Shown piece after piece: positions 30,494-40,348 of a DNA stretch of 64,000 nucleotides. The stretch is from contig CAVTBR010000001.1 in NCBI GenBank assembly GCA_963733055.1, positions 64,001 to 128,000 of the forward strand. The letters are read 5' to 3'. Every line of letters begins with the position of its first letter. Within the stretch, counting starts at the first letter, position 1. The notes under the pieces were generated by a model that was not told the origin of the DNA, did no database searches, and worked only from the letters and a program-made list of their open reading frames with translations. This stretch comes from Candidatus Bathyarchaeota archaeon (GTDB lineage: Archaea > Thermoproteota > Bathyarchaeia > 40CM-2-53-6). Both the position numbers and the translations under genes were made by a program.

Positions 30494-33302
30494 TCACACA
30501 CGCCCACTCTTTCTGCGGGCCTTGAGATTCATGACAAGTAGAAAAATGAAAGCTAGAGCAGAGAGAATTAACCATGGATTCTGCCATGGGTTTGTGACTT
30601 CTTGTGGGTTAGTTGTGCTATTCCACACGGCGTTAACGGTTGCTGGTGAGGCTACTTGGATTATGGTTCTCACTTGTGATTGATTCAGTCCAGTTGTCCA
30701 ATCCGAGAAGAGAACCGGTGGCTCGTTGAGCATTGGTGGTTGGACGAGGATTGTGGCTAGTGATTTTGCGTCGTACCATCCTGAGCCTGAAGTCTGCCCG
30801 TATGGCGAGTTGACCTGTAGGAGGTACTGTTGCGTGTAAATGGGGTCGAGGGCAGTGTCTCCGTCGAGGTTCAATTGCCTCGTGGTGGCGTTAGTCGAGT
30901 CTTCCCAAGCTATGAAGCGGTATCTTGAGGCGTTGCTCAAGTAAATGAACAGTTGGATCTGCATCGTGTGCTGGCCTGGAGGAGTATGAATTTCGGCCAA
31001 GCCACTGGAATTCGTGACGAATCTGGTGCCATCGAATGAGAATACTATGCCTGGGACGGAGGAGTTGACGGTCACGGTTACGAGATTACTAACTGCTACA
31101 TTTGCGGAGTATGTGTTGGAGGCTTGTGACCAGTTGCCGTTGGAGTTCTGAAGAACGAAGAAGGAAATGGATGATTCGGAGCTGTTCAGGATTGAGGGAA
31201 TCACTATGGGGACCATTCTGCTATCATTCGCTAACCCGGTTTCGCTTAGCATCAATCTTTGACCGGCGTCATAGGCAGCAAGAATCCTTTGGCCGCCTTG
31301 AGCGCTTAAAGTTAGATTGCAGTTGATTACGAAGGCTTCGCCTTCGGTTACCTTCTTTGGGGTCAGCACTGATGTTATCTGAGCCGTCGAAACTTCTGTA
31401 GAATTGCCTACAGATGAAGGCGCCAAACCGGTTGGGAGTTGAAGCACTTTCGATCTTTCAATGAACCCGACAATCAAGTTGAGGGCACGAGTGTCGTACT
31501 GCGCCAGTGGCGCGGATTGTCCAGACCTCGTGTCCAACATCTTCGATCACGTGGAATTCTTTGTGGGTGTACTGCGTTCCGACGGACCCTTTGCGCGAGG
31601 TGCTATTGAAGTACTGGCTGCCAGTGGCCTCGTAATCGGGCAAATTTCCTCCATAGATTATGAATAGATTAGTCCGTAATTCGTTTGCGTTCTTGAGCAC
31701 GTCTTGGCCAAAGGGGACTGTGATCAGGATGAGTCCGTCTTGAGTTGACCACTCTTGGGGATGAGTGAGGGTAAGTTCGGCGGTGGCGGCTTGACCCCCC
31801 ACCGAGTAACCTACTACGAAAGTATGCTGATAACCCTGCCCGATGATCCATTCGTGCACTTCTTCTATTACGCGTGTCTGCGGGGTGAAGAGTTCTTGGT
31901 AGATGGTTCGGTTCGCCGCAGGATTGAAGCCCACGGTTGACCCCTGTTGTAAAGCTAGGACACAATAGAAACTCGCTAAGTCCTGGATAAAGCGGATCGT
32001 TCCAAACGATTCGTAATCGAATGGGTTAATCAGATACCCGTACGACCCGGGTTCTGCTATTTGAGGAATTCCGCCCCCAAGCCAAAGAAGACAGGTATCG
32101 CTGCCGGGTCGATTCCAATAGTACCATTCGGCATCACCAATCTTCACGATTGAGGCCCGAGGTTGTGAAGGCATTTGGGCATGAACAGCGGGAAACGTCA
32201 TAGAAACGATAAGCAGAAACAATCCCAAGCCGATAAGTCTGGTCGTAGATCCAGCACGTTGAATTGGAGAACGCGACCCGCTGTCTCGGTGCCGATACCG
32301 AACGAAGGCTATTCGGGCACCCAACAGTAGGCAGCCTAGCAGGAGAAGGTCGACTAGGACAGTTTGGTCAATTCGGGTGCTGTCCTCGATCCAGTTGGCG
32401 TTGATCTGCTTTGGGGTATTCATTGTTAGGGTTAAGATGTAGCTTGTTGAACTGCTGTCCCCAGACCAGCCGTTGAACCGATATTCACCGGTCAACCCGA
32501 GGAAAGATGGGACACTGATGGTTGGAGTAATGGCAACCGTGGCCTGTGCGCCTTTTTCGTACCATCCTTTGCCGACCACTTGCCCCTTATCCGACTGGGC
32601 GGACAAGTAATATTCAATCCTATACAGGGCGGTTAACGTGGTGGGTTGTGTCAGGAATATTTGGTGTGGATCTGAGTTAACACTGTCACTCCAACCGACG
32701 AAGACATACCTTACTCCAGCATCACCCTGCACAATCAATGGTGCCCGCAACGAATGCGGTCCCCGTTGAATTGTGAGTGGTGTAAACGATCCGTTTTGAA
32801 TCTGGTAAGAAGCGTTGTCAACCATGATCTGCGCACTGGTAATAACAGAGCCCAGCGTTAGTGTCACATTGTTTGACGGGTTCTCCACCGATACCGTGAA
32901 AGGACTGGACCCTCCGTTAGGATCTTCATACCATGCATCTTGCCACCAGACACGATTAATGGCGATTAGATTCCATTGTCCACTTGTCGACGGAGCGGTC
33001 AAGGAAAGCTGGAATGTTACGTTGCCTGGGCCAGTAAACTGGCTGATGAGCGTAAAGCTCTGAACCATCAACCCCGCTGCTGCATCCCAGATGCCAACGT
33101 CCGCCAAGAATTTGTCAGAATATTCGGCGTGAATATTCACTTGGAATGGCGAACCTGGGGAAACGAGTTGCGGATAGGCAACTGAAGTTACTTTTGCAGT
33201 TGGGTAAGTCGTCGCTTCGGCGATAGGGATTTGACTATTGGCGCAACATAGCACGGCCGCACTTGCCACAATTAGTACCAATGTTCTGAAGTTACGGCGC
33301 AT
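30494..33302 (-). CDS. Multidomain secreted/membrane protein with beta-repeat domains and an alpha/beta-hydrolase domain; +1 frameshift near 31499
   Basis: Signal peptide; 'YVFVGWSD', 'YRFNGWSG', 'GSGWY' repeats; GYSVGG elbow and 'GHE'; internal and C-terminal TM. Confidence 0.75.
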
Positions 33303-33442
33303 GCAGACTTCGTTTCATACCTAGAGAGGGTTTTATTCAAAGCCACCGCCCCCAGGCCGCGATCAGTCACCGTTCTATTCAATTCGTCGCTCCGAACAGA
33401 ACTCTATTTTATGAGAGGGGAGTTGACTCTAGCGGCCGGTGT

Positions 33443-33591
33443 GCCGGGGTAGCCAAGAGATCCTAACCCTGATCTGGCAACCTGGTATGGCGTCGGATTG
33501 CTAATCCGATGACCGCAAGGTCTCGTGGGTTCAAATCCAGCCGAGGGGTATTTCGGATACACCCCCGGTGGTGAAAATCCCACCCCCGGCG
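33443..33591 (+). tRNA. tRNA-Ser(GCT) with two non-canonical introns: 15/16 (33458-33480, 23 nt) and 59/60 (33536-33577, 42 nt)
   Basis: Acceptor GCCGGGG/CCCCGGC; anticodon arm TCGGA-TTGCTAA-TCCGA; long variable arm GACC-GCAA-GGTC; BHB helices GCCA/TGGC and TTCA/TGAA. Confidence 0.93.
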
Positions 33592-33711
33592 CCTCACAAA
33601 TCCAGTGCACTCTGCGCAAGTCGGAAAGAACATGACATCCTATGGGAATTCTGGGTTCAGTAAATGTAAATAGCTCAATTCAGTGGACTCATCAATTAGG
33701 CATCTCGCAAC

Positions 33712-36700
33712 TTGACAAGCACTGAAGCGTCAGCTAGTCCCAGTGTTCGCGCAAAGGTTTCCACGGGTTACAATATGTTAGATGAGGCTCTGCAAGGCGG
33801 CTTCCTAGCTGGAGCAGCAATCGTCCTTAGTGCTCCCGCAAGTGATGAGGTACCGCTTCTTATCGGAAACTTCCTCAGAGCCCCCAAGGAACAAGGCCTC
33901 TTAGTATGTCGCACGCTTTCCTCCGCCGAAATGATCACGCAGAATATGGGTGAGAATGTGAGGTCGCTGATTTGCAGCGATAAACCCGTCTCACCCTCGA
34001 GAACCATCCTACCCGGCAAGGGCATCGAGAACCTAACCGAGCTGAACCTGCAGATCGGTGAAGTAATCGCTTCAACTCAACCCAAACGTTTGGTCATAGA
34101 CATCCTTTCGGATATCCTACTCCGCCATAAGGCGTTGCAGACACGAAAATGGCTCACGGAACTACTTGAACGATTACGATCCAAAGAGATCACCACTCTA
34201 GCAGTAATCAACCCCCTCATGCATTCCGCCGAGGACGTCCAAGCCGTCATAGATTTATTCGATGGCAACTTGGAAATATTCGAAGACGAACTCGAGGGGA
34301 CGCTTAGAAAGCATCTTAGAATAAAATGGATGCACGGCATCGAAGTTTCCGAAAAGGAGGTTCAGTTGCACGACCTAGCTCCAGAAACTTCCCCACAGCC
34401 AGCCACCGCACCGGTTCCCGCTTCTTCGAGGGAGCCCCGCTGGCTCACTCCACTCGTGAGTCGAACCGAAGAGCTTTCCCGGCTCAAATCCGCTTTCGAC
34501 GACGCACTCGCCAAAAAATCGACCGTCGTTGCCATTCATGGTGAACCGGGCGTTGGAAAGACTCGACTGATGCAGGAACTAGCGGTCTACGCTGGGACGA
34601 AAAAAACTGTCGTCCTGTCAGGTAGCGCCTCCGAGCACGGAATCGCCTATGGGCCTTGGATTGAAGTTGCGAGGCAATATGTGTCGCAAGCTCCGGGTGA
34701 ACTGCTCCGTAGAATGCTCGTAGGAGCGCAGATATCCGAATTTGCAAGATTGGTTCCCGACATTGCCGTTAAGCTGGGGACCATTCCTCCTTCAAAATCG
34801 CTAGGTGACCAACAGCTAGACAAGATGCGACTCTTTGAAGCCGTCACACAATTCTTCAGGTCAATATCCAGTGAAGCCCCGTTACTCGTGTTGCTTGACG
34901 ACATGCAACTAGCCGACCAGGCATCATTGGACCTCTTGGACTACTTCGTAAGGGGCACAGGCAACCTTCCTATCCTCACTATATGTTCGTTGCCGGCGGA
35001 ACGTGACATCGACGCCACCAGCCCCCTTGAGCAGACATTCATGAAGCTTAACAAGCAGCGTTTACTCGAAAAGATACCCCTCAGGAACCTTAGTAGGATA
35101 GAGACGACTGAGCTGATCAAGCAGATATTCGGGGAACAGACTCTTTCCGCGGATTTCGCTGACCTGATCTACAAGGTGACGGATGGCAACCCATTCTTCG
35201 TAGAGGAAGTTCTCCGCTCATTAGTCGACGACGGGACCATCTTCCGAACCGAGAAGGGATGGGATAGGAAACCGATACAGGAACTCGTTGTGCCAAAGAG
35301 CGTGAAGGCCACCCTAAGGTCTAGGTTGAAGTTCCTCGACCAAGAATCTCTTAACATTCTAACTTGGGCAGCTGTAATTGGAGGCGAATTCGACTACGAG
35401 GTTCTAAAAGAAGCAACAGAACTGCCGGAGGAAACGTTGCTCGAGAAGCTTGAGAGCGTCCATAATGCAGGCCTAGTGGTCGAAGCTCCGGGAAGCAAGA
35501 CAGTATTCCGCTTCGCCGATAACAGGATCAGAGAACTCCTACTAGACGACATAATTCGCATCAGACGAACTAGATATCACCTGAAAATTGCAGAAGCAAT
35601 GGAGAAAGTATTCGCTGGGAAACTTGATCGACATGCCGAATCAATGGCGCATCATTTTTCCGAAGCAGGCGACACAAAACGAGCCATCCACTATTCTATC
35701 ATGGCTGGAGACTTCAGCCAATCTATCCACGCCTACGACCACGCGGCGGACAACTACAAGCGGGCCGTGGCCCTAATGGACATGGAAAGTGGTGATGGCC
35801 AGGAGAAGGCGATTGTGCTGGAGAAACTGGCTGGGGCATACTATTACTCAAACCGAGCGACCGAGAGTACTAAATGCTATAGCCAGTCTCTTGAAATCTT
35901 CGAAAAGCTGCACGACGGTAAGTCTTGCGCCAGATTATGCGCAAGCTTAGCAAAGGCGACATATGAAATTAAGTTTGACCTCTCAAAGGCCTCCGAAGTT
36001 CCACAGATCCTAAAGAGAGGGCTAGGATATATCGAAAACGAGTCGGAAAGTTTTGAGGCTGCTTCGATTTACGCTACCCTTGGTGATTATTATGAACTCT
36101 TGGACCAATACGACGAAGCCAACCCGTTCATTGAGAAAGCCATACAGATTGGCGAAAAGACAGGAAATTTCGGTGCATTCGCTACCGCGCTACTAGGTCA
36201 AGGTTATTCTTTAGCGGATTCGGGGAACGTAGATGACGGGCTGCCTCTGATGGAACGTGCCCTTGACGTAGCACTGAAACACGAACAAAACAGTGTCACA
36301 GTTTTTTGCTTGATGAACTTGAGCGCTTACACTTACCCCAGGAATCTCGCGAAGTCCAGGGAGTATTCTCTTCGTCTTCTTGAGTTTAGCAAACGTATGG
36401 GAGCGGTGTTTGGAGAGGTCAGAGGGTTGGGTTGTCTGTGGTTCGCTGACTGGATGTTGGGAAACTGGGAGGCAGCGGGAAAGGAGTTCAGTGACGGATT
36501 AGCTCTTAAAGAACGCATCGGAACAACAACGACCAGGCTTGTTGAGGGAATGAGGGTATGGTTCTCACTTAGCACGGGTGATTTGGACGCGGCGGAAAGA
36601 TACCTTCACGCTGCTTTGGCCAGCGAGGATTCAAAGATAACTCACATCGTAATCAATAATCTTCCCGCAGCGCTGTTACGATTGGAACAAGGCAAAGAGG

Positions 36701-37170
36701 ATGAGGCAAGGGCACATCTTGAAACCTGCGTAAACGCCTTCAAGAATTCAGAATTCACCACAGATCCCCTCCTCCATGTCGAAACCCTCCTCCATCTAAC
36801 CAGCCTTTACGCTCGGAGTGGAGAGTTTGAGAAGGCGGCCAACATGTCTCAGTGGGCGAGGAGGCTGGCGGAGAAACTCCATAGTGATGCGGGGCTTGCG
36901 ATGGCAGCTCAGGCCGAAGCCTCTCTCTTCTTGGCTCAAGGTAACCAGATAGGGGCTGAAGGGGCTTACGTTAAGTCCTTGGATTTGTGGGAGAAGGCTG
37001 GTTGGCCGTATTACAAGGCCAAGGCGTTAGTAGCTTATTCGCATGCGATCGCTCAGTCAAATCCCCAAGAATTCAGGAAGATGTTGCTTGAAGCCGTGGA
37101 GATATTCAGAAAACTAGGCGCAAGACATGACCTGGAAAAAGCCGAAGCTAAACTCTCGGCTAAAGCGTAG
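33712..37170 (+). CDS. Degenerate RecA/KaiC-like domain + STAND AAA ATPase + TPR repeats
   Basis: 'STGYNMLDEALQGGF' with broken Walker A; 'LVSRTEEL', GEPGVGKT, LLDD, 'TDGNPFFVEE'; C-terminal helical repeats. Confidence 0.85.
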   Translation: MTSTEASASPSVRAKVSTGYNMLDEALQGGFLAGAAIVLSAPASDEVPLLIGNFLRAPKEQGLLVCRTLSSAEMITQNMGENVRSLICSDKPVSPSRTILPGKGIENLTELNLQIGEVIASTQPKRLVIDILSDILLRHKALQTRKWLTELLERLRSKEITTLAVINPLMHSAEDVQAVIDLFDGNLEIFEDELEGTLRKHLRIKWMHGIEVSEKEVQLHDLAPETSPQPATAPVPASSREPRWLTPLVSRTEELSRLKSAFDDALAKKSTVVAIHGEPGVGKTRLMQELAVYAGTKKTVVLSGSASEHGIAYGPWIEVARQYVSQAPGELLRRMLVGAQISEFARLVPDIAVKLGTIPPSKSLGDQQLDKMRLFEAVTQFFRSISSEAPLLVLLDDMQLADQASLDLLDYFVRGTGNLPILTICSLPAERDIDATSPLEQTFMKLNKQRLLEKIPLRNLSRIETTELIKQIFGEQTLSADFADLIYKVTDGNPFFVEEVLRSLVDDGTIFRTEKGWDRKPIQELVVPKSVKATLRSRLKFLDQESLNILTWAAVIGGEFDYEVLKEATELPEETLLEKLESVHNAGLVVEAPGSKTVFRFADNRIRELLLDDIIRIRRTRYHLKIAEAMEKVFAGKLDRHAESMAHHFSEAGDTKRAIHYSIMAGDFSQSIHAYDHAADNYKRAVALMDMESGDGQEKAIVLEKLAGAYYYSNRATESTKCYSQSLEIFEKLHDGKSCARLCASLAKATYEIKFDLSKASEVPQILKRGLGYIENESESFEAASIYATLGDYYELLDQYDEANPFIEKAIQIGEKTGNFGAFATALLGQGYSLADSGNVDDGLPLMERALDVALKHEQNSVTVFCLMNLSAYTYPRNLAKSREYSLRLLEFSKRMGAVFGEVRGLGCLWFADWMLGNWEAAGKEFSDGLALKERIGTTTTRLVEGMRVWFSLSTGDLDAAERYLHAALASEDSKITHIVINNLPAALLRLEQGKEDEARAHLETCVNAFKNSEFTTDPLLHVETLLHLTSLYARSGEFEKAANMSQWARRLAEKLHSDAGLAMAAQAEASLFLAQGNQIGAEGAYVKSLDLWEKAGWPYYKAKALVAYSHAIAQSNPQEFRKMLLEAVEIFRKLGARHDLEKAEAKLSAKA

Positions 37171-37318
37171 TCGGATTTCGTTCACTGATGGATGTCGACC
37201 TAAGAGTTTAGTGTGAGACAGGCAATATGTGTGAACGAGACCTGATATGTCCGACGAGAGACAGTCTTCCTCCAACGAATTTCGTGGGTTCATCCAGTCA
37301 AGCACGGAAAAACGCGGA

Positions 37319-37341
37319 GGTTCAAATCCCACCCCCGGCGC
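37319..37341 (+). repeat. att-like copy of the spliced tRNA-Ser 3' end (GGTTCAAATCCCACCCCCGGCGC)
   Basis: Exact match to 33528-33535 joined to 33578-33592. Confidence 0.85.
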
Positions 37342-37584
37342 TTTCAATTCATCTTAGCAAATTTGGCCTCGAAATCAATTTCGACTCCTCCCAACTGACA
37401 ATCCGAAGAACTTCAAGAGATACTCAACGCCAGAGGAAATCGCCATAATCCGTCGCATGCTCAGAGAGAAAGACAGCGGCTTCCGATGAATGAAGAATCC
37501 CTAGGAGGCCGAGACGCGAACTTACTACTACCGTTAATATACTGACACCATTCACCAGACGCACCTGTTAAAGGAGAATCGGGT

Positions 37585-38298
37585 ATGGCTACATTCGTCC
37601 TCGTGCCGGGAGCTTGGTTAGGAGGGTGGGCCTGGAAGAAAGTCGTCCCACTGCTCGAGAAGAAGGGGCACGAAGTCCATGCCGTCACTTTGACAGGGAC
37701 CGGGGAAAGAGTACATCTCTCATCCAGGGAAGTTGGCATTGAAACCGCAGTTCAAGACGTTCTGAACGTGATCAAATACAACGACCTTGACGATTTCGTG
37801 CTAGTAGGTCACAGTTTTGCGGGAAAGGTAGTGGCAGCTGTGGCAGACCGGGCACCTGAAAAGGTGAAGACGCTTCTCTACCTCGACGCGTTTCGGCCCC
37901 AGAAGGTCAGGACACCGCAGGGAAGCTTCGATCCTACCAGCGAGTTTGGAAGTCTCAAGCCAGGTGAATGGGCGATTCCTCTAACTGAAGAAATCCTTGA
38001 CAATATCGGCAAAGATGTCAAGGGTCCAGATCGAAAGTGGATGCTAGCTAAGGCGACGCTATGGCCCATGAAGCACGCAAGCGAACCAGTGATCCTCTCA
38101 AAGAATTTTGATTCGGTGAAGAGCGCCTACATATTCTGCACGGGCGGCGGTGACTCCGTCGACGAAATCCTGAAAGAAAAGTGGGGAAAGCTGGACGGCC
38201 CCTACAAAGTCATCGATTCAGGGCACTGGCCGATGATAACGAAACCCGATGAGCTAGTCGAAGACATGGTCTTTCTCGCCGGCAACTCCACGCGATAA
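37585..38298 (+). CDS. Alpha/beta hydrolase (esterase)
   Basis: 'LVPGAWLGGW', GHSFAG, 'SGHWPM'; SD AAGGAG. Confidence 0.9.
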   Translation: MATFVLVPGAWLGGWAWKKVVPLLEKKGHEVHAVTLTGTGERVHLSSREVGIETAVQDVLNVIKYNDLDDFVLVGHSFAGKVVAAVADRAPEKVKTLLYLDAFRPQKVRTPQGSFDPTSEFGSLKPGEWAIPLTEEILDNIGKDVKGPDRKWMLAKATLWPMKHASEPVILSKNFDSVKSAYIFCTGGGDSVDEILKEKWGKLDGPYKVIDSGHWPMITKPDELVEDMVFLAGNSTR

Positions 38299-38351
38299 TT
38301 TCCAACTCTCATGTCTGAGGAAATGATAGCGCCTACAGGGACTGAGCTAGC

Positions 38352-38370
38352 TCTCCTGGGTGCAAATCCA
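38352..38370 (+). repeat. Degenerate copy of tRNA-Ser T-arm/intron junction
   Basis: TCTCCTGGGTGCAAATCCA vs TCTCGTGGGTTCAAATCCA (33521-33539), 17/19. Confidence 0.55.
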
Positions 38371-38444
38371 ATCAAAATTTAATTGCGCAACGCAAATAAA
38401 ACAAAGGCCATCAGGGTTCATCGTAGGCTCAGAAGGGTAATTCG

Positions 38445-39152
38445 TTGAATTCCCAAGAACCCGACGGATCAATTCGACTCTTCCAGGAAATCAGAAACGG
38501 TGACATGGAGGCTGTTCAGGCAATCATAGATAAAGAACCCAAACTCGTGAACGCTCGCGATGAGAAAGGCCTAAGTCCCGTAATTGTGGCCCTTTACTGC
38601 GGCAGAAAGGACATTGCCGACTGCCTCATCGCGCAAGGGGCTGTCTTGGACATTTTCGAGGCTTCAGCTGCGGGCCGATCGGATCGAATCAGGGAACTGC
38701 TGAAACAGAATCCAAGTCTGATTAATCGTTTCTCATCAGACGGGTTTAACCCGCTGCACTTGGCAGCATTTTTCGGAAACTACGACACTGCCCGATTGCT
38801 GTTGGAACAGGGTGCGATAGTCAACGCCCAGTCACACAATCCCATGAAGGTAACGTCTCTTCATTCAGCCGTGGCCGGGAACCAGACAGAGGTTGCGATC
38901 ATCTTGATTGAGAAAGGTGCCGACGTCAATGCAAATCAGGAAGGCGGGTTCACTCCGCTGCACTCCGAGGCTCAGAACGGGAACTTGGAGCTAACGGAAT
39001 CTCTCCTGAAGCATGGGGCGAGCATCAATGCAAGGACGGTGGACGGAAAAACCCCTCTTGGACTAACAAAGGAGGAAAGCAACGAAGCGGGACCGAAAGA
39101 ACTGCGCGTTCAAGTCGCTCAGCTGCTCATGAAGTCCGGAGCGGTTGAGTAA
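38445..39152 (+). CDS. Ankyrin repeat protein
   Basis: GFNPLHLAA, TSLHSAV, GFTPLH, GKTPL repeats. Confidence 0.93.
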   Translation: MNSQEPDGSIRLFQEIRNGDMEAVQAIIDKEPKLVNARDEKGLSPVIVALYCGRKDIADCLIAQGAVLDIFEASAAGRSDRIRELLKQNPSLINRFSSDGFNPLHLAAFFGNYDTARLLLEQGAIVNAQSHNPMKVTSLHSAVAGNQTEVAIILIEKGADVNANQEGGFTPLHSEAQNGNLELTESLLKHGASINARTVDGKTPLGLTKEESNEAGPKELRVQVAQLLMKSGAVE

Positions 39153-39199
39153 TTAGCGGTCGTGTGTGCGAGGATCTCTAGTGCGAGTAGAGCGAACAT

Positions 39200-39289
39200 C
39201 TACTTGCGCAGCAGTAGGAAACCAGTCGCTAGGCCCCATATGCCGAAGATCGCAATTGCGACAACGGCGAGGATTCGACGCGGGCAAAT
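39200..39289 (-). pseudogene. Start-less fragment of a membrane protein C-terminus
   Basis: Translates to ICPRRILAVVAIAIFGIWGLATGFLLLRK*, preceded by an in-frame stop. Confidence 0.35.
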
Positions 39290-39319
39290 CTAATATTTCA
39301 GTTTCCCGCGATCCCTGGT

Positions 39320-39604
39320 GTGAATCGGATGTTAGCTAGCGAGCTCAATGGGCTTAAGGTGTATGCGGCGGGTATGAAGATCGTGGGCAACGTTGTTGAT
39401 GAAGTCATTGACCCTCAGGCGTACAATCTAACTGACCTCCAGCTGAAACTTGAGAAGAGCGCCGCGAGAATGATTTTTGGTGAGAAGTTCACCTTCGGAA
39501 GCCCCAATGTCCGTGTTCCAGTGTCAGCAATCGACAAGATCGGCGACGCGGTGATCCTGAAGTTCGCCATAGATCAGTTGAAGGAACACGTCCAGAAGAT
39601 CTGA
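39320..39604 (+). CDS. PRC-barrel domain protein
   Basis: 'ASELNGLKVY...VGNVVD', 'VPVSAIDKIGDAVIL'. Confidence 0.85.
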   Translation: MNRMLASELNGLKVYAAGMKIVGNVVDEVIDPQAYNLTDLQLKLEKSAARMIFGEKFTFGSPNVRVPVSAIDKIGDAVILKFAIDQLKEHVQKI

Positions 39605-39726
39605 CACTACTCAAGTGTGGCGCACGTACCCAGCCCCCCGTCCCGTTGAAGTAAACAGGCAGTTGCCTCGCTTTGTAGCAATAACCATGTTAGGGAGCGT
39701 TTCAGTATTGATGTCCGGCGCGAGGT

Positions 39727-40278
39727 ATGTTCGAGACTCCTGTCACGAAGAAGACTGTGGTCAGAGCCATCCGTATCACGGAAGAATTGGACCGAATTCT
39801 GAGAGAGGAAGCAGAGGCTAAGAACATTAGCGTCGCCTCATTGGTCCAGAGCATATTCACAAGGCACGCTGAGTGGGATAGGTATACAGCGAAGTTTGTC
39901 TACTACTCGCTCCCCTCCGATGGTTTCAAGGCGATCATTGACGCCGCCAACGAAGAAACGATGCTGAGAAACGTTGATGAAGAGTCTCCCAAAGCAGTGA
40001 AAGCCTTCTCGCTGTACTGGTTCAAAGAATTCAACGTCGATTCCTTCCTTAGAATCTTAGCACTCAACAGTAAATACGGTCGGCACTATGATTGCCAGAT
40101 ATCGAACGATGGAAAGCGGACTAGGATCAGTATCCACCACGAACTCGGCAAGAAATGGTCAAATATGCTTTCAAAGCAGTTCGGTGGAACACTGAAAATG
40201 CTGGGGATAATCCCACAATTTGACTCGATAACCGAGGAATCAGTCGTATTCGGGTTCCCTTACACGCCCAAAAGGTGA
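39727..40278 (+). CDS. Ribbon-helix-helix DNA-binding domain plus V4R-like domain
   Basis: 'VRAIRITEELDRILREEAEAKNISVASLV', 'IHHELGKKWS'. Confidence 0.7.
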   Translation: MFETPVTKKTVVRAIRITEELDRILREEAEAKNISVASLVQSIFTRHAEWDRYTAKFVYYSLPSDGFKAIIDAANEETMLRNVDEESPKAVKAFSLYWFKEFNVDSFLRILALNSKYGRHYDCQISNDGKRTRISIHHELGKKWSNMLSKQFGGTLKMLGIIPQFDSITEESVVFGFPYTPKR

Positions 40279-40348
40279 TCCGTCAGGATTCACAAGTCCG
40301 ACCGCGAGCATTACCTCAAACGATCCGTATCGTGATGGCGAACTCAAA

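Follow-up and report, generated by a model that had tools for sequence, protein, structure and literature searches.

A 3.8-kb integrated-element remnant and the probable delivery of a T-loop intron to the tRNA-Ser(GCT) gene of a Bathyarchaeia archaeon

Closest described systems and the present locus

The origin of archaeal tRNA introns is still an open question, and the only mobile-element route that we found in the literature is a single locus of Caldiarchaeum subterraneum, where an attP-borne intron has been proposed for tRNA-Thr(GGU) (Sugahara 2012, PMC3293823). In that model, an intron-free attB recombines with an intron-bearing attP, giving an intron-containing tRNA gene beside the insert and a displaced tRNA fragment as a direct repeat, in a pNOB8-like layout. 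A 2021 review cites the route as a proposal (Badel et al., PMC8371274), and a 2026 preprint on Asgard tRNA introns leaves the arrival route open, with no general route found. Here, we describe a comparable arrangement in a genome of the Bathyarchaeia. The window, that is, the whole 64,000-nucleotide stretch analyzed (C1:64001-128000 of a 2.88-Mb genome, G000; three contigs, 50.5% G+C), contains a tRNA-Ser(GCT) gene entered by an element of which a 3.8-kb remnant persists, and this element probably delivered the gene's T-loop intron through recombination of an intron-bearing attP with an intron-less attB. In our literature search, which covered main-text material, we met with no T-loop introns borne by an integrase family, whether in Bathyarchaeia or elsewhere.

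As in the Caldiarchaeum model, the intron at our locus is contiguous with the insert and absent from attB, and an attP-like intron junction occurs outside a tRNA. The Caldiarchaeum case consists of fosmid variants with a 5′-side fragment, an intron at position 24/25, and a 1.8-kb insert with a recombinase (PMC3293823), whereas the present case has 3′-side integration, an intron at 58/59, and local loss of the integrase, and the material comprises several genomes and metagenomes, four tRNAs, and two intact integrases. Our sequence data match the attP-borne intron model, and they extend it to a new position and to an entire family of elements. Judged from gene order, the layout is pNOB8-like and not SSV-like, because a full-length integrase begins right after the 3′ exon, the integrases of the family being known here by PF00589 alone. 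Elements of the pNOB8 type likewise keep an intact integrase beside the rebuilt tRNA and duplicate its 3′ part, and tandem arrays and integrase-less remnants of them are known (PMC8371274). In SSV-type elements, attP lies inside the integrase open reading frame (ORF) and Int(N) and Int(C) flank the insert, whereas integrases of the present family are whole genes that begin beyond the tRNA end, and the right arm contains 1-nt indels and bears no similarity to integrases. Tandem reuse of one site and many cryptic elements have also been described in Thaumarchaeota, where the tRNA targets comprised 29 intron-less and 10 intron-containing genes (Krupovic et al. 2019, PMC6563490), although that work, in its accessible parts, concerns integration into intron-containing tRNAs and not the delivery of an intron by an element.

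Insertion, borders and empty site

The locus comparison was based on BLASTN of window positions 31000-40300 against 40 relatives. In G019, the closest syntenic relative, a tRNA-Ser(GCT) gene with a plain T-loop is followed by a hydrolase gene, and the STAND gene of the window is absent. Contig C75 of G019 aligns to window positions 31000-33538 (84%), continues without a gap into 37319-37346 (28/28; the tRNA-Ser 3′ end and 5 nt of flank) and then into the hydrolase gene (82%); synteny picks up again at 39280. Because G019 joins 33538 directly to 37319, window positions 33528-37318 are a 3,791-bp insertion in the T-loop, one core copy counted. The same plain, intron-less joint is present in G013, G012, and G009. 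An 11-bp direct repeat, GGTTCAAATCC, flanks the insertion (33528-33538 and 37319-37329), and the intron lies directly 3′ of this core as an unbroken part of the insert, whereas the empty site of G019 lacks it. The parts of the locus, in window coordinates, are as follows.

33443-33591, plus strand: tRNA-Ser(GCT) gene, broken by a D-region insert and the T-loop intron (ARAGORN after in silico deletions)
33528-33538, plus strand: core copy 1 (GGTTCAAATCC), the left junction from chromosomal tRNA to element (plain joint in G019, G013, G012, and G009)
33535-33576, plus strand: 42-nt T-loop intron at 58/59, element-supplied (hand-built hBHBh′ fold and conservation)
33577-33593, plus strand: replacement 3′ exon, element-supplied (read from sequence; joined to the 5′ exon, it restores the T-arm and acceptor)
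33594-33618, plus strand: stub of the integrase-proximal arm (CTCACAAATCCAG...), about 25 nt in common with G018, G021, and G020
33712-37170, plus strand: cargo gene for a KaiC-like ATPase with STAND (AAA_16) NTPase and TPR domains (Pfam)
37192-37318, plus strand: conserved element arm of about 130 nt, with relic 2 inside (21-arm profile)
37319-37346, plus strand: right junction, formed by core copy 2 and the displaced 3′ end of the intron-less tRNA gene with 5 nt of its flank (relic 1; 28/28 in G019)

This arrangement suggests the following mechanism. An element of the family would recombine with tRNA-Ser(GCT) at the 11-bp core in the T-loop and T-stem, its attP carrying, 3′ of the core, a 42-nt bulge-helix-bulge (BHB) intron and a copy of the tRNA's last 15 bases. 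Integration would turn the intron-less T-loop into an intron-containing one and move the old 3′ end 3.8 kb downstream, beside the arm; cleavage of the pre-tRNA by the splicing endonuclease, followed by ligation of the exons, would yield the same mature tRNA as before. The integrase gene would have been lost later, leaving the ~25-nt stub, one cargo gene, and the arm, with an older hydrolase cassette behind them. The intron appears to have arrived with the element because it forms one continuous stretch with the insert, is lacking in the empty site, and is found behind arms outside tRNAs. The crossover would fall inside the 11 bp, with the integrase catalyzing recombination at the core. Such delivery would reverse the common view of introns as a shield of tRNA genes against integration, as the intron would be a product of integration, with the core upstream of it. 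The original prediction, made from the sequence alone, suggested that the locus tests such blocking; the locus does not show introns to block integration, the crossover core lying 5′ of the intron. The locus and its relatives make a fuller case, with an empty site, both junctions, the predicted attP found in nature, four target tRNAs, and intact integrases, and this makes the attP-borne intron model testable at the bench.

The right end of the element is a conserved arm of about 130 nt that aligns with 20 arms of relatives. A profile of these 21 rows, the window arm among them, gave its sole strong match in the genome here (E 6.3e-32, 37192-37329 including the core) and one weak match, beside the 31-nt tRNA-Glu repeat closing a ~19-kb element. 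Two readings of the arm were rejected: a structured RNA, because of the consensus energy of -0.85 kcal/mol, and a coding piece left by a split integrase, because of 1-nt indels and the lack of a tblastn match. At the left end, the stub at 33594-33618 (adjacent CTCACAAA stub, CTCACAAATCCAG...) is common to G018, G021, and G020 for only about 25 nt, and its position in relatives is the start of the integrase gene.

The original prediction named three repeats of the tRNA 3′ end (relics 1 to 3, at 37319-37341, 37282-37297, and 38352-38370), all of which are present, with one cargo gene between successive sites, first the ATPase and then the hydrolase gene. Relic 1 is, as it proposed, an exact 23-nt copy of the spliced 3′ end that preserves the intron-less state: it matches the in silico spliced tRNA at 23/23 positions and the unspliced gene at 21/23. 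It is not scattered over the genome, which has two exact copies, relic 1 itself and the 3′ end of another tRNA (C1:686039-686061), so the 23-mer alone cannot name its source tRNA. Because of the synteny with G019, where the 28/28 match is followed by the hydrolase gene, relic 1 is, on sequence evidence, tRNA-Ser's own old 3′ end, the displaced original of the intron-less gene. Relic 2 had been described as a copy spanning the exon-intron junction. The resemblance is real, with a 2-nt gap, and relic 2 is unique in the genome at 0 to 1 mismatch; its standing as a separate attachment relic was lost, because 13 of the 21 homologous arms carry the motif GGTTCATCCAG (≤1 mismatch) at the same position, at junctions with and without the intron. 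Relic 2 is therefore a family arm motif, neither a local junction copy nor a second relic, and its likeness to the core plus the intron start may reflect a repeated recombinase site or an old duplication.

These results bear on the serial scenario of the original prediction, in which intron gain by the tRNA was an independent event, preceded by the integration that left relic 1 as a scar and followed by the one that left relic 2. The perfect match of relic 1 to the spliced form and the junction-like look of relic 2 are what such a history would leave. Relic 2, though, is part of a single conserved arm, with 21 nt between it and relic 1 downstream; seven of the 13 arms with its motif stand at intron-less junctions; and the intron runs on into the insert without a break and is lacking in the empty site. 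We regard separate integrations around an independent gain as highly improbable. Relics 1 and 2 form one right junction, made up of the arm, the 11-bp core, and the displaced 3′ end. The alternative offered alongside, an element whose attP matches an intron-less allele, comes near to the favored reading, in which an intron-bearing attP recombined with an intron-less attB. The broader view of the site as one where remnants of integrated elements accrete at a tRNA is supported.

The T-loop intron and its spread among relatives

The unaltered tRNA-Ser(GCT) gene was missed by ARAGORN in default mode and by Rfam at the gathering threshold. ARAGORN called tRNA-Ser(gct) in 261 of 440 deletion variants (22 starts × 20 lengths), and only after both the T-loop intron and the D-region insert had been removed in silico. 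The gene is probably the only tRNA-Ser(GCT) gene of the genome and hence must work, because the sole other copy of its anticodon arm (C3:149890) lies outside any recognized tRNA. That copy, on the minus strand, is an exact 17-nt match, perhaps a pseudo-tRNA or part of an extended attP, with tRNA-Arg(CCG) and an integrase about 500 nt away. The D-region insert, at window positions 33456-33477 (approximate), contains a small hairpin, and it is old, unlike the T-loop intron, because all tRNA-Ser(GCT) genes examined, three of them from other genera, have a comparable insert. The sole Rfam match at 33380-38480 in an E-value scan, to sR46, was sub-threshold (17.9 bits; gathering score, 50) and was disregarded.

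The T-loop intron is 42 nt long, with a register that is ambiguous within AAATCC, and its 3′ exon (33577-33591) is a copy of the tRNA's last 15 bases. Its sequence is BHB compatible: in a hand-built hBHBh′ fold, the T-stem GTGGG/CCCAC is followed by a central helix TTCA/TGAA with bulges AAT/AAT and then an intron helix, placing two 3-nt bulges with a 4-bp helix between them at the exon-intron borders. The energy of this fold is -24.8 kcal/mol, against -25.8 kcal/mol for the minimum free energy (MFE) structure. Over 15 related junctions, three pairs of the central helix are kept in 15/15 and the fourth in 13/15, and the BHB pairing holds in 86% of cells, compared with 54-61% after a slide of 1 to 2 columns. 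A strict search for the T-loop BHB signature found a single occurrence in the genome, at this locus, and two EndA-family (PF01974) genes are encoded (83.9 and 54.7 bits). These two genes are located at C1:1338756-1338995 and C3:228623-228877.

Among the genomes of the genus, the tRNA-Ser(GCT) T-loop intron is present in three (G000, G018, and G021) and the T-loop is plain in 15 (3/18 scorable; five further genomes were not scorable), and it is plain in 3/3 genomes of other genera. All three intron-bearing genes are followed by the identical stub type. The comparison across relatives proposed by the original prediction thus found an intron that varies and a cargo that is not fixed, being absent from G019. 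The genes of G018 and G021 also have an anticodon-loop intron that the window gene lacks, which suggests that the T-loop intron was acquired more than once.

An old, vertically inherited T-loop intron, lost precisely by the relatives and unrelated to the cargo insertion, would be in keeping with a genome in which tRNA introns are common and with the D-region insert retained throughout the tRNA-Ser(GCT) genes. Such a history would demand many precise losses (15 plain genus genomes and all three plain outgroups), and it leaves unexplained both the displaced intron-less 3′ end and the recurrence of the same intron behind arms and in other tRNAs beside integrases; we consider it very unlikely. The delivery of the intron by the element agrees with the catalogue of junctions (n=35; the duplicates L019-L021, L023, L024, and L026 and the own-genome loci L028-L031 were left out), which is given below by context and form.

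tRNA-Ser, plain: 9
tRNA-Ser, intron: 3
Second tRNA, plain: 1
Second tRNA, intron: 4
Arm, plain: 11
Arm, intron: 5
Variant arm, intron: 1
Other tRNA-like flank, plain: 1

Junctions of arm, core, and intron outside any tRNA occur in G011, G020, G021, and G016 and in metagenome loci; free elements and tandem junctions are alike possible sources. A metagenome scan added 13 loci in which the arm and core are followed by ARCC, 11 of which continue into the intron and 3′ exon (contexts read by eye). One metagenome locus, L085, is attP as predicted from joining the window's two junctions, with arm, core, intron, and 3′ exon followed by the window's own stub arm. A genus-wide search with a pattern of core, 20-75 nt, then GAAMATCCC returned 19 matches, spread over 10 of 23 genomes, against none for the reversed pattern; eight of them are in tRNA context (four tRNAs), another eight follow arms, two have other surroundings, and one is probably spurious. 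No match to the intron-type pattern was found in viral contigs. Near relatives found through the DNA pattern comprised nine records, eight of them metagenome-assembled genomes (MAGs) labelled Bathyarchaeia or Bathyarchaeota and the ninth a 3.7-kb contig labelled Acidiferrales.

The second tRNA of the catalogue (C1:685923-686063) shares its T-arm and acceptor with tRNA-Ser; its tentative ARAGORN assignment is Pro(UGG), with an oddly placed 62-nt intron, and its Rfam tRNA score is 42 bits. Its homologues in G001, G020, G016, and a 3.7-kb contig (L027) bear a T-loop intron of the same family. In G004, a tRNA-Ser-like gene heading an array (L015:5126, contig C14) has the anticodon loop TTGTTAA instead of TTGCTAA, and a normal tRNA-Ser(GCT) is on another contig. 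At the metagenome locus L080:5032, an arm-core-intron junction has its intron 3′ TGAA box replaced by a second T-loop copy and looks like a hybrid of the intron-bearing and plain forms.

Integrases, arrays and neighboring genes

Intron, arm, and integrase are linked across the family. In G014 (contig C16) and G017 (contig C5), a full-length PF00589 tyrosine integrase (306 and 318 aa aligned, respectively) starts directly after the 3′ exon, within the element and in both cases at a tRNA other than tRNA-Ser(GCT), and in G016 (C41) and G020 (C6) an N-terminal integrase fragment occupies this place. Searches by tblastn with the G000 integrases found further N-terminal fragments directly after several junctions, and homologous integrases occur in 14 of 23 genus genomes, abutting the 3′ ends of various tRNAs. 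Beside the intron-type sites of tRNA-Ser(GCT) and of a further tRNA ("tRNA-X"), fragments only were found and no intact integrase. The same genome contains a complete relative, a ~19-kb element at tRNA-Glu (G000:C3:527900-546930) with a 31-nt direct repeat of the tRNA 3′ end, an arm-like left flank, and two PF00589 integrases, one starting right after the tRNA. The element in the window is a remnant and not a complete element, because it has no integrase and only the ~25-nt stub of the integrase-proximal arm. At L025:6066-6846 (G016, contig C7), a frame-broken integrase N-terminus follows an arm-core-intron junction, and the next two small ORFs resemble, by eye, an RHH antitoxin and a RelE/ParE-type toxin.

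Several observations weigh against delivery of the intron by this element. No PF00589 integrase is encoded in the window, as the original prediction had noted; six are encoded in the genome, all elsewhere. For the 3.8-kb element, no integrase, free circle, or excision joint was found, so the check for excised circles gave nothing: in four sequencing runs (Logan contigs), which are fragmentary, the stretch is covered piecewise with no joint across the element, and the loose ends in plain and arm-core-intron forms belong to relatives only. The exact repeat measures just 11 bp, short compared with pNOB8-type elements, as the intron splits the copy of the tRNA 3′ end that the element carries. The element may have been gained by the window lineage or lost by that of G019, and in both cases the intron accompanies it. 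Neither the MFE fold of the region nor RNAalifold gave the BHB, covariation over the 15 junctions is modest (four pairs changed on both sides), and splicing of the intron by the endonuclease is predicted from the modeled fold. Among the relatives' arrays (10 loci), 0 of 129 ORFs matched PF00589 in Pfam, so most arrays have decayed or been moved in trans. All genomes compared are MAGs, and G000 is 96% complete with 5.3% contamination. A MAG with a repeated tRNA end could in principle have had contigs joined wrongly at that repeat by assembly or binning; with the locus inside a 1.57-Mb contig and the architecture recurring in independent MAGs and metagenome contigs, such an artefact is barely credible.

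Small att-flanked units that lack a recombinase and stack at one site are known from the accretion of cis-mobilizable elements (CIMEs) and integrative and conjugative elements (ICEs) and from integron arrays. Arrays in G015, G018, G011, G020, and G004 consist of units of about 0.4-3.8 kb, each ending in a well-kept arm of about 130 nt. An extension of the delivery model would have such integrase-less cassettes moved in trans by integrases encoded elsewhere, forming an integron- or CIME-like array anchored at a tRNA. Besides the arm-ended units, it draws on the lack of an intact integrase in the arrays, on the six family integrases elsewhere in the genome, and on the window arm, which still matches the profile at E 6e-32 (own arm among the 21 rows) though its integrase is gone. 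The N-terminal fragments after several junctions speak instead for the decay of once-complete elements, no circles were seen, and integron-type features are lacking: no integrase stands beside the tRNA or the arrays, gene orientation is mixed in relatives, and the arm has no consensus fold (no attC-type hairpin). We consider this extension rather unlikely. A more general proposal is tentative and somewhat doubtful: T-loop (58/59) introns of the genus may generally be attachment-site cargo of one integrase family, each integration or excision toggling the state of the tRNA, with integrase-less arm units as trans-moved, tRNA-anchored cassettes. If true, this would provide a concrete, testable arrival route for archaeal tRNA introns.

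The cargo ORF of the window element encodes 1152 aa, with a likely ATG at 33775, and matches AAA_16 (3.7e-26), KaiC (8.1e-13), and TPR_12 (4.3e-16). A homologue in G011 (L005:7097-10543) lies between two junctions of arm, core, and plain 3′ end. PADLOC gave only generic TPR and P-loop matches for the cargo and named no defence system. Two KaiC-STAND-TPR paralogues are present in the same genome, at G000:C1:188396-190338 and G000:C3:498509-500522 (64-66% nucleotide identity).

Downstream of the right junction, the remaining features of the locus are as follows.

37585-38298, plus strand: alpha/beta hydrolase gene, cargo of the older cassette, in common with G019 (Abhydrolase_6, 1.4e-19)
38352-38370, plus strand: relic 3, a possible decayed junction (17/19 to the tRNA)
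38445-39152, plus strand: ankyrin-repeat gene between relic 3 and a conserved PRC-barrel gene (Ank_2, 1.3e-28)

The hydrolase gene is 82% identical over 704 nt to L001:5526-6226 of G019, where the hydrolase cassette ends with an intact arm and core at L001:8404. In a plausible history of the locus, an older element would have brought the hydrolase gene, a second one with an intron-bearing attP would have entered the tRNA in the window lineage or been lost from that of G019, and the integrase would have been deleted later. An ordering of tandem events, with arm-core-intron junctions taken as a sign of later reuse of intron-bearing sites, was dropped, as integration into either junction yields an identical product. 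The 17/19 match of relic 3 was found as the original prediction gave it, and at ≤2 mismatches only relic 3 and the tRNA match genome-wide; its status as a relic is undecided, with a BLAST alignment of 20/24 (E 0.28), no arm upstream (nhmmer E 1.7), and no 3′ exon after it. Relic 3 may represent the end of the older hydrolase cassette in decayed form.

The ankyrin protein encoded at 38445-39152 matches the PADLOC candidate defence family PDC-M72A (E 1.9e-26), and its gene is not at the corresponding place in G019. The sole tRNA found by the tools in the window lies at 673-765 on the minus strand, and scores 48 bits against the Rfam tRNA model. In default mode, ARAGORN identified it as Gly(ccc), and in intron mode as Val(cac) with a 15-nt intron.

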